A program made the position numbers and the translations under genes. The notes beneath the pieces were generated by a model that was not told the DNA's origin, made no database searches, and saw nothing but the letters and a program-made list of their open reading frames with translations. Positions 2,937 through 14,738 of a DNA stretch of 64,000 nucleotides are shown here, in pieces. Every line of letters begins with the position of its first letter. Within the stretch, counting starts at the first letter, position 1. The DNA comes from Polyangiales bacterium. GTDB lineage: Bacteria; Myxococcota_A; Polyangia; Polyangiales; Ga0077539. The stretch covers positions 704,001-768,000 of the forward strand of contig JBGARZ010000001.1 of NCBI GenBank assembly GCA_044229975.1, read 5' to 3'.

Positions 2937-3824
2937 GTGCCGCTCCCTCCCCCTCGCCCGTCGCGCCTCAAGCTCCTCCCCGAAGCCGCCCTGGTCGCGA
3001 CCTTCCTCGGCATGGCCGCCTATGAGGCCGCCGAGGTGTTCTTCCTCGAAGCGCCCACCGGGTCGGCGGTGTCGCTCACCATCGTGCTGCACTCGTTGCA
3101 GGTGCTCGCCATCCTCGCGGGCGCCGCGGGGCTGCTGCGCGCGCTGCGACAGCGGGCCGCCCACGAAGAAGCGCTCGCCCGCATGGTGGAGAAGGTTCTC
3201 TTCGCGCAGGAACAGGAACGCCGCCGCGTCGCCTACGAGCTGCACGACGCCGTCTCGCCGCTCATCGTGAGCGCCAAGCAGCACGCCGAGACCTGCCGCG
3301 ACGCGTGGTCGGATGACGACACCCGCGCGCGGTCCGAGCTCACCCGCGGCATCGACCGGCTCCAACAGGCGATCGTCGAGACCCGGCGCATGCTCCGCGC
3401 GCTGCGCCCCTCGGACGTCGACGCCGACGGGCTCGCCGTCGCGGTGCGCCGCTGCCTCGACGAGTCCGCCGAAGAGTCCGGTTGGACTGTCGCCTTCGAG
3501 CACGACCTCACCGACGACCGGCTCCCTGCAGCCGTCGAGATGGCGGCGTTTCGCATCGCGCAGGAGGCCGTTCGCAACGCCGCGAGGCACGCCCGCGCCG
3601 AGCGCGTCGAGGTGCGGCTCCGACGCGACGGAGACGCCTTGCGAGTGCGGGTGCACGACGACGGCGTGGGCTTCGCGGCGGGCGACACCCCCTCGCGCGG
3701 ACTCGGACTGGTGAGCATGCGCGAGCGGGCGAGCCTCCTCGGCGGGCAGTGCGTGGTGGAGAGCGGGCGGGGCCGCGGGACGACGGTGGACGTCTCGCTG
3801 CCGTTGCGTGCGGAGCAAGCGTGA
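2937..3824 (+). CDS. Sensor histidine kinase (HisKA_3 / NarX-LiaS type)
   Basis: ERRRVAYELHD H-box, FRIAQEAVRNAARHA N-box, HDDGVGF and GLGLVSMRERA G-boxes; two N-terminal TM helices. Confidence 0.92.
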   Translation: MPLPPPRPSRLKLLPEAALVATFLGMAAYEAAEVFFLEAPTGSAVSLTIVLHSLQVLAILAGAAGLLRALRQRAAHEEALARMVEKVLFAQEQERRRVAYELHDAVSPLIVSAKQHAETCRDAWSDDDTRARSELTRGIDRLQQAIVETRRMLRALRPSDVDADGLAVAVRRCLDESAEESGWTVAFEHDLTDDRLPAAVEMAAFRIAQEAVRNAARHARAERVEVRLRRDGDALRVRVHDDGVGFAAGDTPSRGLGLVSMRERASLLGGQCVVESGRGRGTTVDVSLPLRAEQA

Positions 3825-3886
3825 CCGCTTCACCCGGCTACGGACCGGGGTTGGTCGCGTCCCGCGCCTGCACCGCCGGGCAAGCG

Positions 3887-5811
3887 ATCGGCATAGGGGC
3901 GGCCCCTCCGTGAGGAGGAGCCGACCCCTGCCACACCACCGGACAAGCGGGTCCGCATCCGGCGGTTCGGACGGTTGAGGTCACCTCCGTAGCCTCCACA
4001 ACCCGAGGCTGTCGAACCAACTGGGTCGGAGCGTGAAGCCCAGGCGGAGCGCGCGGCGCCACCAGCCACCGGCCGAGGCCACCGACTTCCAGCTTGCTTC
4101 GTCCCCTTGTCCAAGGGCGCGCAGCGACTGGTAGATCGTGATGCCTCGCTTCCAGTGCTTCAGTTGCACCATCCGAAGGCGACGGCGAATCCACTCGTCC
4201 AGCCCCTCGAAGAGCTTCGTCTGCTGCGTGAGGCGGTAGTACGCCCACCACCCACGCAGGTACCGATTCAGCCTCTCGATCAGTTGCACCAGACTGCGAC
4301 CCGCCGTCCGGCTCGTGAGCTCCCGCACACGCGCCTTGAACGCCTCTTGCGACTTCGCCGACACCCCTCGCTTCACTTCTCCGCCGTGCGCGTAGAACTG
4401 AAAGCCCAGGAACTTCCGTCCCTTGACCGGCGCCACCGCGCTCTTGGACTCGTTGACCCGGAGGTGCAGCGACGCGAAGCGCTCCCGCAGGAATGCCATC
4501 ACTCGCTCGCCCGCCCGCTCCGACCTCACGTACACGTTGAGGTCGTCGGCGTAGCGCACGAACGCGTGACCGCGCTGCTCCAACTCCTTGTCCACTTCGT
4601 CCAGAAGCACGTTCGCCAGCAGTGGTGACAGCGGGCCGCCTTGCGGCGTTCCCTCCGTCCGCGCCGTCGCGATCCCGTCGGCCATCATCCCGGCCTCCAG
4701 GTAGCGACGGATGAGCCTCAGCAGGCGCTTGTCCTCGATGCGTTTGGCCAACCGGCCCATCAGCACGTCGTGGTTCACGCGGTCGAAGAACGCTTCGAGG
4801 TCCACGTCCACCACCACCCCGCGCCCCTCCTGGACGTAGCGCTGTGCGACGACAATCGCGTCGTGCGCGCTGCGCCCCGGGCGGAACCCGTAGCTGTGCT
4901 GTGAGAAGGTCGGATCGAATCGAGGCTGAAGCACCTGGAGGATCGCCTGTTGGAGGAGACGATCCAGGGCCGTCGGGATGCCGAGAGTCCTCGTGCCGCC
5001 CGACGCCTTGGGGATCTCGCACGATCTCACCGGCTGCGGTTGGTAGCGCCCCGCGAGGAGGTCCTCGCGCAGACGCGGCCAGTGCACACGCAGGTGGGCC
5101 GCGAGATCCTTCGTCTCCATCCCGTCCACTCCGGGGCTGCCCCGGTTGCTCTGCACCCGCTGGAGCGCCCGCAAGAGGTTGTCCCTTCCGAGGACCGCCT
5201 CCAGCAAGGCGCTGGTGCCCGAGTGCTCGTCTCCTTTCGTCGCCGTGGGGTCTTCCTCGCGGGGCTGCGCGTTGAGGGCTTCACCCTCGTCGCGCCTCCC
5301 TCGCCCCGGTGGTGTCCCGGGCATCTGAGGCGGTTCCCTTTTGAGACTCATGGTCGATGCACCCTCCCTTCCGTTTGGTCCTTTGCGCGGCCGTCGGCCC
5401 TTCGTCGTGGCGTTCCCCGTCGTGTCTCCGACGTCGTTGGCGACGTCGGCGCGGGAGCCCAGGTTTTCGGACGCGCTACTACGACCTCTGCTGACTTCCT
5501 GCGCCGCACGTTGGTGTGTGTCGCCCTTTCAGGCGTGAAGCAGGATCTCCCCGGGTAAGAAACGCTGGCTTTCACGGCGCAACCGCCCGATCTACCGCAC
5601 GGTCTCTTGGTCATTGGAGCTTCGCGGCTCCTTGCCCGCTCGCCCCAGACCGCACGGCCTCACATCGGCTTTCTGTCCGTCGGCTCGCCGTTTCGCGTCG
5701 GGCTTCCTTCAGACAGTCCGTTGCCTCGCTGCCCTTGCCTCTCGCGTGGATCGTCATGACCTACTTTCCCGGGGACTTGCACCCCGAAGCCAACGCCCAT
5801 GCCGGGCGCAC
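3887..5811 (-). mobile_element. Group IIC intron (~1925 nt ribozyme with RT ORF in domain IV)
   Basis: 5' end GTGCGCCCGGCATGGG; TTCTTACCCGGGGAG at the domain I end; short domain V ACCGCCGGATGCGGACCCGCTTGTCCGGTGGT (3935-3966) with CGC triad; domain VI ending CCCTATGCCGAT. Confidence 0.93.
3981..5351 (-). CDS. ltrA: Group II intron reverse transcriptase/maturase, no endonuclease domain
   Basis: SPGVDG, RTLGIPT, SYGFRPGRS, DLEAFFDRVNH, GTPQGGPLSPLLAN, RYADD, LNRYLRGW; ends without an HNH domain. Confidence 0.96.
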   Translation of the reverse strand: MSLKREPPQMPGTPPGRGRRDEGEALNAQPREEDPTATKGDEHSGTSALLEAVLGRDNLLRALQRVQSNRGSPGVDGMETKDLAAHLRVHWPRLREDLLAGRYQPQPVRSCEIPKASGGTRTLGIPTALDRLLQQAILQVLQPRFDPTFSQHSYGFRPGRSAHDAIVVAQRYVQEGRGVVVDVDLEAFFDRVNHDVLMGRLAKRIEDKRLLRLIRRYLEAGMMADGIATARTEGTPQGGPLSPLLANVLLDEVDKELEQRGHAFVRYADDLNVYVRSERAGERVMAFLRERFASLHLRVNESKSAVAPVKGRKFLGFQFYAHGGEVKRGVSAKSQEAFKARVRELTSRTAGRSLVQLIERLNRYLRGWWAYYRLTQQTKLFEGLDEWIRRRLRMVQLKHWKRGITIYQSLRALGQGDEASWKSVASAGGWWRRALRLGFTLRPSWFDSLGLWRLRR

Positions 5812-6017
5812 AAAGCAGGCGCCCCTCCGGGGCTTCCGGAAGCCATCGACCGCACGATGGGTTCTTGTTGAGTGCCTGGAATGCACTTCGTGACGCTCGT
5901 GGCGACCTTCCGAAAGCCCCGCTGGGGCGCTTGCTTTCGCTTGCCCGGGGTGCAGGCGCGAGGCGCGACCAACCCCGGTCCGAAGGCAGGCCGAGCGAAC
6001 CGGAGAGACGAGCCGTG

Positions 6018-6614
6018 ATGCGCGTGTTGCTGGTCGACGACCACCCCGTGGTCCGCGAGGGCCTTCGCAGCATGCTGGTGAGCGACGGCGTCGAGGTCGT
6101 CGCCGAGGCCGCGACCGGCGCCGACGCGGTGTCCCTCGCGCGGCAGCACGCGCCCGACGTGGTGCTGCTCGACATGCAGCTCCCGGACATGGAGGGCGTC
6201 GCGGCGCTGCGGCAGATGAAGCAGACCGGTGTGCGCAGCGCGGTGCTCGTCCTGAGCATGCACGACGACCCCGCGATGGTGCGCCGCGCGATGGACGCGG
6301 GCGCCTCTGGCTACCTCCTGAAAGGAACCAACCGCGGCGATCTCCTCGCCGCGATGCGGGCCGTGTGCGAGGGAGCGACGGTCATCGACCCGACCCTCCA
6401 GGCGGCGCTCGCACCGACCGACGACGCGCTCACCGCGGTCGAGCGCGAGGTGCTCCGACTGCTCGCCGAGGGGCTCACCAACCGCGAGATCGCCGAGCAG
6501 CGGAAGTGGAGCATCGCGACGGCGAAGAAGTACGTGCAGCGCGTGCTGGAGAAGCTCGGCGCCACCGACCGCACGCAGGCCGTGGCCGTCGCGATACGAC
6601 GCGGGCTCGCGTAG
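6018..6614 (+). CDS. NarL/LuxR-family response regulator
   Basis: MRVLLVDDHPVVREG, DVVLLD, GYLLK, LTAVEREVLRLLAEGLTNREIA HTH. Confidence 0.93.
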   Translation: MRVLLVDDHPVVREGLRSMLVSDGVEVVAEAATGADAVSLARQHAPDVVLLDMQLPDMEGVAALRQMKQTGVRSAVLVLSMHDDPAMVRRAMDAGASGYLLKGTNRGDLLAAMRAVCEGATVIDPTLQAALAPTDDALTAVEREVLRLLAEGLTNREIAEQRKWSIATAKKYVQRVLEKLGATDRTQAVAVAIRRGLA

Positions 6615-8790: not shown

Positions 8791-8925
8791 CGGGGGTGAA
8801 TGTTTCAAAGGCCCGCTTGGAGGCGAAGCGGTCTACCCCCGCAGTTCGAGACGAGGGCCGTCGGCGGCCTGAGCCGGACCCCGAGCGTGAGCGAGGAGGG
8901 CACAACCTCGGGTTGCACACCGGCA

Positions 8926-9138
8926 CATCGATTGGAGAGACCCCTACCCCTCTTCGATCGATGGGTTGCATCGGTTGGAGAGACCCCCACCCCTCTTCGA
9001 TCGATGGGTTGCATCGGTTGGAGAGACCCCCACCCCTCTATTGCCGACACCGCGCATCGTGCGAAGAGACCCCTACCCCTCTCCCATCGATGCGTCGTTT
9101 CGGTTGGAGCGACCCCTCCTCTCTGCCAACACGATCCC
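8926..9138. repeat. Five 43-bp tandem repeats
   Basis: Core AGAGACCCC recurs at 8936, 8979, 9022, 9065 and 9108; unit approximately GCATCGGTTGGAGAGACCCCCACCCCTCTTCGATCGATGGGTT; the last copies are degenerate. Confidence 0.85.
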
Positions 9139-9378
9139 GTCGACCGGCGGCGTCGCGGTCGCGTCCCTCCGGGCAGGTTCGTCGACCGCGGGCGTCGCGG
9201 GCGCTCCCCGCCGGGTAAGGTCGTCGACCGCGGGCGTCGCGGGCGCTCCCGCCGGGTAAGATGCCGACCGTCGGCCGCGCGGTCGCTTCCCTTCGACCCT
9301 AAAGCGAGGTCGAACTAACGCCCGCGGTCGACGACCTTACCCGGAGGGACGCGACCGCGACGCCCGCAGTCGACGACC
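9139..9378. repeat. 42-bp tandem repeats followed by inverted copies
   Basis: GTCGACCG at 9139, 9181 and 9223; 9319-9378 is the reverse complement of about 1.5 units. Confidence 0.8.
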
Positions 9379-11877: not shown

Positions 11878-11983
11878 GGGACCGGGCGATATCACACCCC
11901 GCGCCGCAGCGCTGATGGATCACTGCTTGGGTGGTGTCCGACTTGGGACACTGATTTCTCTCCGTCTCCAAAGTAGGACAAGT

Positions 11984-12224
11984 CGCCGCGTTCACGCCGG
12001 AGTTCACCGTGCCGCCCCCGCGCCCACCGCGCTCGGTTCACTCCGGGCTATTTCACGCGGATCGCCCCGCCGAAGCGGGGCTCAGGAGGCCGAGGGCACT
12101 TCATGGTCCCTGGGCGGAGGCACGGAGCCCCGCTTCGGCGGGGCGATCCGCGTGAAATAGCCCGGAGTGAACCGAGCGCGGTGGGCGCGGGGGCGGCACG
12201 GTGAACTCCGGCGTGAACGCGGCG
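11984..12224. repeat. Palindromic element, family B: 100-bp perfect inverted arms with a 41-bp spacer
   Basis: 11984-12083 is the reverse complement of 12125-12224; each arm has an internal GCCCCGC-CGAA-GCGGGGC hairpin. Confidence 0.9.
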
Positions 12225-12265
12225 GATTCTCAACTTGGGACACTGCGCCTCAAACTCGGACACTA

Positions 12266-14549: not shown

Positions 14550-14738
14550 CGGGGTTGGTCGCGTCCCGCGCCTGCACCACCGAGCAAGCGAACGCAGGCG
14601 CCCCTTCGGGGCTTTCGGAAGGGCGCTTCGGTCATCCAGCAGCCGGCGCGTTGTGTTGGCCGATCGCTTCGGGAAGCCCCGGAGGGGCGCCTGCGTTCGC
14701 TAGCCCGGTGGTGCAGGCGCGGGACGCGACCAACCCCG
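14550..14738. repeat. Palindromic element, family A copy 2 (no intron)
   Basis: Arms 14550-14621 and 14667-14738 are reverse complements and match the arms of 3841-5982 (ggggttggtcgcgtcccgcgcctgcacc..gcaagcg|aa.gcaggcgcccc..ggggct); the spacer differs. Confidence 0.88.

Follow-up and report, generated by a model that had tools for sequence, protein, structure and literature searches.

The 64,000-nt stretch of Polyangiales DNA that we analysed (the window) carries a group II intron inside a palindromic repeat, element X, which lies between the genes for a sensor histidine kinase and a LuxR-type response regulator. The intron is antisense to both of these neighbours. Farther along, the window contains a second copy of X that lacks the intron. 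In order of position, the features are:

2937..3824 (+): sensor histidine kinase gene (Pfam HisKA_3 and HATPase_c), flanking element X
3841..3886: element X, outer part of one arm, with hairpin A; this is the 3' exon (from sequence, junctions and fold)
3886 (-): IBS3 (C), the first base of the 3' exon; C at 8/8 3' junctions
3887..5811 (-): group IIC intron, 1925 nt; ends shared by 5 whole copies and 6 pieces at contig ends
3889..3933 (-): domain VI hairpin (predicted fold)
3935..3966 (-): domain V, 32 nt, with a CGC triad (predicted fold)
3981..5351 (-): intron-encoded reverse transcriptase (RT)/maturase, 456 aa (Pfam RVT_1 and GIIM)
5592 (-): EBS3 (G), a coordination-loop base that, in relatives, varies loosely with the base at the start of the 3' exon
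5630..5633 (-): EBS1 (AAGG), in a loop of domain I that, in relatives, covaries with the final 4 nt of the 5' exon
5812..5815 (-): IBS1 (CTTT), the end of the 5' exon, identical in 8/8 copies
5812..5842: element X, inner part of the interrupted arm (from sequence and fold)
5821..5833 (-): inner hairpin B, a 5-bp GC stem with a 3-nt loop, 9 nt upstream of the insertion site
5843..5905: element X, copy-specific spacer; spacers differ among the 8 occupied elements
5906..5982: element X, intact second arm, with an empty CTTT site at 5934-5937 (+)
6018..6614 (+): LuxR-type response regulator gene (Pfam Response_reg and GerE), flanking element X
14550..14738: intron-free sibling of X, with CGTT at both sites (14591-14594 on the minus strand and 14694-14697 on the plus strand)

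By every feature that we tested in its sequence, the intron is group IIC (class C), as an initial annotation of this DNA had proposed. On the minus strand it runs from GTGCG... at 5811 to ...CCGAT at 3887, and the Rfam model RF02001 matches it at 5560-5730 (105.7 bits). The RT scores 417.9 bits against TIGR04416. Its best solved relative is the RT of GsI-IIC (E = 2.6e-128) and the next is also a IIC RT (E = 3.7e-93), while the solved IIB and IIA RTs score lower (E = 3e-39 and 2e-33). The RT also groups with terminator-homing class C relatives, in a tree without GsI-IIC itself. Searching the intron's ORF against Pfam, we found RVT_1 and GIIM only and no endonuclease domain. In group IIC, domain V is short (32 nt) and contains a CGC triad, as it does here; the domain V of this intron scores 30.5 bits against RF00029, which is under that model's 40-bit cut-off.

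Removing the intron gives an element of 217 nt with 77-nt arms (71 of 78 aligned columns match), which agrees with the element of about 215 bp with arms of about 77 bp in the initial annotation. The restored element folds at -112 kcal/mol (z about -20 versus 60 shuffles). The arms of this copy extend outwards by another ~15 nt in degenerate form (3826-3879 versus 5944-5997, 81%); other copies of X have an outer arm of roughly 27 nt, also degenerate, and inspection by eye for a target-site duplication found degenerate outer ends. The hairpin that was said to close the 5' exon is there as well: it is hairpin B, with the stem GCCCC/GGGGC, and 9 nt follow it. The second copy of X has 84-nt arms that are 90% complementary (z -16.6) and a spacer unlike that of the intron-bearing element. 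It had been described as an empty sibling, and it is indeed intron-free with similar arms, but it does not offer a valid unused site, as both of its tetranucleotides are CGTT and not CTTT.

We searched the genome (10.0 Mb in 39 contigs, ~71% GC, 93% complete) for other copies of the intron and of X. There are eight copies of the intron: five whole copies, which are 99.9-100% identical to each other, and three that are split by contig ends (we counted three 5' ends and three 3' ends as three copies). X comprises 11 complete elements, 8 of which are occupied, along with two half-elements and at least 8 single copies of hairpin A without a site. Of 24 pattern hits, we excluded one as non-family; the remaining 23 are the sites of X, of which 8 are occupied and 15 are empty (12 with CTTT, 1 with CCTT and 2 with CGTT). 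Three elements are empty despite valid-looking sites. Using rough gene calls (7731 genes, 87% coding), 22 of the 23 sites lie between predicted genes. The initial annotation would have regarded the insertion as opportunistic if X had only the two copies in the window or if other copies of the intron lay mostly behind ordinary terminators. We found neither: X is a larger family, and all eight introns are in X, each in a separate element. It also suggested checking whether all copies occupy one position, and all eight 5' junctions are at the identical bond, preceded by hairpin B, 5 nt and CTTT. No element has both of its sites occupied, which has a probability of about 0.09-0.13 by chance and is not significant.

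In seven of the eight copies, the 3' exon is the continuation of the X arm. In the eighth, a 478-nt palindromic element, which we call Y, lies between the intron and the arm. There is a CTTT on each side of Y, which implies that Y inserted first and that the intron inserted later at CTTT|C, where the sequence that became its 3' exon was unrelated. Thus, only the 5' exon and a single C would be needed for insertion. The spacers and outer arms of the eight occupied elements all differ from one another. Because the introns are nearly identical and the spacers are different, the intron itself appears to have moved after the elements diverged. Furthermore, in two copies, private variants of the arm beside the junction match the partner arm of the same element, which argues against flanks having been copied in from a donor. 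The near-identity of these recent copies suggests that the intron is active in self-splicing and retrohoming. Six of the copies lie downstream of a gene on the same strand and could be expressed by read-through; the copy in the window is one of the two exceptions. By GC skew, both raw and gene-corrected, 5 of the 8 copies are consistent with insertion into the lagging-strand template and 3 are ambiguous. Among the contigs of four public runs, we found no joint that skips the intron. In one of these contigs, from a run that may be the source of the assembly, an X arm flanks the intron on either side and the spacer is a different one.

The choice of site can be related to guide pairing. Across the intron and its relatives, the EBS1 loop and the site co-vary: AAGG/CTTT for this intron, and GGAT/ATCC, TCAT/ATGA, GCTA/TAGC, CAAC/GTTG and CTAT/GTAG for others. 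In each member of the intron's clade (described below) whose loop was read, EBS1 fits the local site. Relatives that are present in multiple copies (L071-L077) tolerate loose pairing with EBS1. In the window's sibling element, the CGTT sites would set G against G in the pairing with EBS1, and both are empty. The genome also has a sister family of palindromes of the same build, with CCTA or CCTG at the site, and the intron is in none of its 28 arms (2 of 30 pattern hits were excluded as non-family).

Hairpin B is our candidate for the stem that the intron recognises. It lies 9 nt before the site in 8/8 copies, which is the mode among distant relatives (8-10 nt), and in the solved IIC complex there are 8 nt between stem and site, according to the available part of PMC10190682. 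The same source gives a stem of 9-12 bp in that complex and a IIC consensus stem of ~12 bp, whereas hairpin B has only 5 bp. Of the 3 folded stretches that contain hairpin B, 2 have a different lowest-energy fold, local folds are unexceptional (z from -0.05 to -1.95), and within the clade the nearest GC hairpin is 3 to 21 nt from the site. The site matches neither the terminator-homing habit nor that of IIC-attC introns. In place of the hairpins with T tails at varied loci that terminator-homing introns use, 8/8 copies lie in one repeat, with 4 T in the last 10 nt; and IIC-attC introns use TTGT|T in the bottom strand of attC, whereas this site is CTTT|C in X.

The arms of X lead to a transposase. 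Of 30 other genomes in the family, 12 have matches to the arms, and two genomes of the same genus, G001 and G007, have a Y1_Tnp gene flanked by them. The encoded protein passes the IS200 model NF033573 (64.9 bits versus a cut-off of 55) and fails the REP-type model NF047646 (24.3 bits versus a cut-off of 80). Its motifs DHAH, WQ and YVDNQPRHH fit TnpA-Y1 subclass 1.2, as this is set out in the portion available of PMC6006769. In the window's own genome (93% complete), none of the four Y1_Tnp genes is flanked by X; they carry other arms, and for two of them the arms have an X-like build (hairpin B, ~10 nt, a tetranucleotide and hairpin A). From these matches, X is likely to be related, as a non-autonomous form, to a Y1 (IS200-like) transposase element, with that TnpA as its putative mobilising enzyme. 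We also considered whether X is an attC site and rejected this: the order of GTT and AAC is reversed and the arms flank a Y1 transposase.

X is an extragenic pair of inverted palindromes around a spacer, as expected for REPs and REPINs. The likeness to the REPIN/RAYT system extends to the variable spacer and to the Y1 gene that lies within the same arms in relatives. As a target, X behaves much as a REPIN would, but it departs from the textbook form: its partner is of the IS200 type and not of the REP type, and the foot of its hairpin is CTTG (CTAG in one arm of the sibling) where REPs have GTAG or GTGG. (In the arms used by the intron's relatives, the foot is GTAG, ATAG or GTTG.) Regarding a MITE of the DDE type, which has target-site duplications at sharp ends, the enzyme associated with X is HUH and not DDE. 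In the list of Quentin and colleagues (2018), subclass 1.2 lacks REPs, and terminal structures are generally absent from it (in the accessible portion of PMC6006769). In contrast, the subclass 1.2 genes found here have long compound palindromic arms and non-autonomous copies. IS200-like transposases of this subclass can thus have long palindromic ends and non-autonomous offspring, which other mobile elements exploit.

We then turn to the relatives of the intron. The RT has at least 545 related loci in genomes and at least 549 in metagenomes; we took the best 80 of each. Among the matches listed, the RT of the window and five relatives (70-84% identity) form a clade with support of 1.0 among 132 distinct RTs and 0.999 among 40 (FastTree). 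Two more members, G015 and G041, were placed in the clade by DNA similarity alone. Palindrome sites are used in 6 of the 7 clade genomes with readable junctions, counting the window's genome. (This count leaves out G264, whose site is identical to one in G043 and is not independent, and G041, where the intron's start is degenerate and merely suggestive.) In G043, all three copies are in a palindrome family that flanks TnpA in that genome. G012, G048, G006 and G015 each have one copy, in arms of X-like build; for these four, the link from the target repeat to TnpA is the shared build and not a sequence match. The sites in these four range from 5 nt before hairpin A to 1 nt into it, and the window's intron is 6 nt before it. 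G005, which is the closest relative among the matches listed (82-84% RT identity), is in the tnpA/tnpB junction of an IS66 element, after a bulged hairpin; its genome itself has X arms. This closest relative (G005:C176; L215, L025) is itself interrupted: ~1.7 kb of other sequence, probably an IS, splits its 5' RNA part from its ORF.

Outside the clade, most sites are terminator-like. The final 10 nt of the 5' exon contain at least 5 T at 76 of 109 distinct sites outside the clade and at 0 of 9 inside it, where the maximum is 4. Other myxobacterial genomes of high GC content also have IIC relatives (L029, L031, L033, L240 and L244) that lie behind terminator-like hairpins. The initial annotation had proposed placing the RT relative to IIC-attC introns; the RTs of three integron-borne IIC-attC introns form a separate clade, with 39-47% identity to the window's RT. 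An automated exon-to-exon palindrome score (top 41) turned up no long X-like palindromes at 87 distant loci. Among the matches listed from metagenomes there were just relatives of 56-63% identity, and a class-wide search of 401 genomes found no further close relative.

Repeats are also the targets of some introns outside the clade. G006 has a second, unrelated IIC intron (C577; L221/L231), with 55% RT identity, in an arm of a repeat that flanks two TnpA genes of that genome, and six other outsiders (L151, L152, L163, L179, L200 and L039) are in other palindromic repeats. Because outsiders are also found in repeats, the habit of targeting repeats has arisen more than once, and these cases point to a convergence that may be open to any IIC intron.

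We noticed three other arrangements among these loci. L151, L152, L163, L166, L170 and L179 make up a separate IIC clade at fixed spots in palindromic repeats, with matching EBS1; we take these repeats to be of a kind found in Alphaproteobacteria. Two IIC introns outside the attC clade (L035 and L103) are, by eye, apparently in attC-like sites and seemingly on the top strand. Also, four related IIC introns (L032, L067, L194 and L206) adjoin the end of another intron, as tandem insertions.

To ask how often eight of eight copies would fall in X by chance, we assumed even use of intergenic sites that combine a hairpin with IBS. The strictest rule demanded an intergenic CTTT|C preceded by a stem of 5 bp at a distance of exactly 9 nt; ~20 such sites come from X and 11 from elsewhere, which gives P = 0.016. 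This rule was derived from the observed sites. Four looser rules leave 71, 92, 104 or 680 other intergenic sites and give P from 1e-6 to 1e-13. The looser nulls are more apt because the multi-copy relatives pair EBS1 loosely.

Our preferred explanation, which we consider probable from the sequence comparisons, is that the eight copies reached one bond of the repeat by ordinary IIC retrohoming, with a 4-nt EBS1 that is tuned to the repeat. An alternative that we think unlikely, and still the strongest of those we considered, is that this is an ordinary IIC intron with no adaptation: the palindromes would simply be the commonest harmless combinations of a hairpin and an IBS, and selection would purge insertions elsewhere. 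Its premise is that a genome with 71% GC is poor in T-tailed terminators. The result of the strict rule (about 20 X sites versus 11 others, P = 0.016) would fit, as would the 9-nt spacing at the mode of distant relatives, the flagging of the arm's own site as terminator-like, the six copies downstream of same-strand genes, the location of G005 in IS66, and the unrelated IIC intron of G006 in a similar arm. However, it was the observed sites that defined the strict rule, and 71 to 680 other sites are available under the looser rules. Relatives in other high-GC myxobacterial genomes do lie behind terminator-like hairpins, the T-poor 5' exons of the clade (9/9) set it apart from the 76 of 109 others with 5 or more T, and the EBS1 loops of the clade (reported as GTAG, GTTG and TAGC) do not correspond to terminator tails.

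We think it improbable that the structure being recognised is instead the long stem between the two arms, or a fork stalled there, with EBS1 invading a short A/T-rich stretch. As a hairpin, the entire element stands out (z -16.6 for the sibling and about -20 for the restored element), which local folds do not; all eight occupied elements have two arms while the sole half-element with a valid site is empty; and the distance from hairpin B varies among the clade's sites. But full pairing of the arms would bury IBS1, two of the occupied elements have nested repeats of ~170-200 nt as their spacers, and one empty half-element is too few to count. Least probable by far is a single insertion that then spread as cargo, either by transposition of a filled element or by recombination between arms. 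The homologous flanks of the copies would permit recombination, but the intron is identical where spacers and outer arms differ in 8/8 elements, private arm variants are preserved beside the junction, and one copy has an unrelated 3' exon. We view the spread of the intron as cargo as largely refuted by these comparisons.

If the intron reached these sites by retrohoming with a tuned EBS1, its RNP would reverse-splice into single-stranded DNA at the replication fork. The inner GC hairpin of the arm and the 9 nt after it would stand in for a terminator, AAGG would pair with CTTT, and G would pair with the following C. As there is no endonuclease, the nascent strand would prime reverse transcription. 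A palindrome provides one site per strand, so that one site would always be on the lagging-strand template, as has been described for RmInt2. Over longer times, members of the lineage may have adjusted EBS1 again and again to match the arms of the Y1-transposase palindromes in their hosts; the commonest EBS1 target in the lineage would be the tetranucleotide at the foot of hairpin A. The arms would be intergenic, multi-copy landing sites that are supplied by a second selfish element.

The initial annotation saw the intron as specialised on a dispersed REPIN/MITE-like family that serves as a landing pad. This reading is supported in that 8/8 copies are at one bond and that there are 11 complete elements, with the reservation that X is not a textbook REPIN. 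The pad is multi-copy, but it is small (23 sites), most of its complete elements are filled, and the closest listed relative is in IS66. A broader proposal, which we regard as quite possible but would not call probable, is that the intron belongs to a distinct class C lineage with a fourth IIC specificity, beside terminators and attC. Its maturase and guide would have become suited to the compound palindromic ends that subclass 1.2 Y1 elements carry, EBS1 would ancestrally read the transposase's foot tetranucleotide, and these ends would make up a REPIN-like family not described before, in which an IS1380-like element is drawn to the very bond that the intron uses.

How does this target compare with known ones? 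In the portions available of several reviews and studies, the targets named for IIC introns are terminators and attC sites (PMC4424553, PMC7306698, PMC8919778, PMC3522654, PMC7923331), and Zimmerly and Semper (2015) list three known specificities, namely homing sites, terminators and attC (PMC4424553, in part). Toor and colleagues (2006) report that IIC introns also occur after "other inverted repeats" (PMC1702495, in part). The intron resembles the terminator-homing introns GsI-IIC, B.h.I1 and E.r. IIC in having an RT/maturase without endonuclease, a 4-nt EBS1 with EBS3, and a DNA stem-loop upstream whose stem ends 8-9 nt before the site (PMC10190682 and PMC1702495, in the available excerpts). 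It differs from them in using one bond in one repeat family, with no T tail and a stem of 5 bp and not ~12 bp. Like IIC-attC, it is a IIC lineage tied to the structured repeat of another mobile system; the site of IIC-attC is TTGT|T, according to an excerpt of PMC7923331, and here it is CTTT|C, and the partner of its target is an integrase where ours is a Y1 transposase.

Outside group IIC, all copies of RmInt2 in Sinorhizobium meliloti are in the inverted repeats of ISRm17, and there, as here, each element offers two sites on opposite replication strands (both from the accessible part of PMC4615759). However, RmInt2 is a class D relative of RmInt1 that uses EBS1 and EBS2, whereas here a IIC intron with a 4-nt EBS1 has a non-autonomous palindrome as its host. 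ISPpu9, ISPpu10, ISPa11 and a group II intron of Pseudomonas putida also land in extragenic palindromes. For that intron in strain KT2440, 2 of 9 copies are associated with REPs (PMC1525189, available in part), compared to 8/8 at one bond here. The excerpt available of a paper on TnpA-REP (PMC8266576) does not mention introns. In the full-text literature, mostly open-access, we found no description of a IIC lineage that is specialised on REP-like palindromes or on palindromes at TnpA ends. The initial annotation presented this as a target class that is not known to be established for IIC introns; RmInt2 and the "other inverted repeats" are precedents in print.

How a IIC intron with a 4-nt guide picks out structured DNA can be compared within this genome in a clean set of natural cases: besides occupied sites, it has an empty sibling with mismatches, a sister family whose tetramer does not fit, and a copy in which another sequence has replaced the usual 3' exon. 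Should the lineage have adapted to the arms, then the target range of IIC introns would be wider and more re-tunable than terminators and attC, which bears on the use of introns for targeting.

Several other repeats and mobile elements were seen in this genome. A 2.2-kb element (G000:C39:198698-200917; L288 399-2618) has terminal inverted repeats and two ORFs, with a weak match to the IS1380 family (E = 3e-6, far below the cut-off). It lies in an arm of the sister family, with a 4-bp duplication, 6 nt before hairpin A, which is the same register as that of the intron in X. Element Y (G000:C34:360136-360614; L289) is a short derivative of this IS1380-like element and sits at the intron's own site in X. 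Palindromes of other Y1-transposase families, with arms as at L004 and L001, are nested in X spacers or in Y (G000:C14:51505-51776, C34:219359-219635 and C11:451380-451572), so several repeat families insert into one another. Within the window, positions 11977-12231 hold a long inverted repeat that is not of family X (arms of 107 nt, 97% complementary), 8923-9116 is an array of 43-nt direct repeats, and 9138-9376 is a 42-nt array that includes inverted copies as well.
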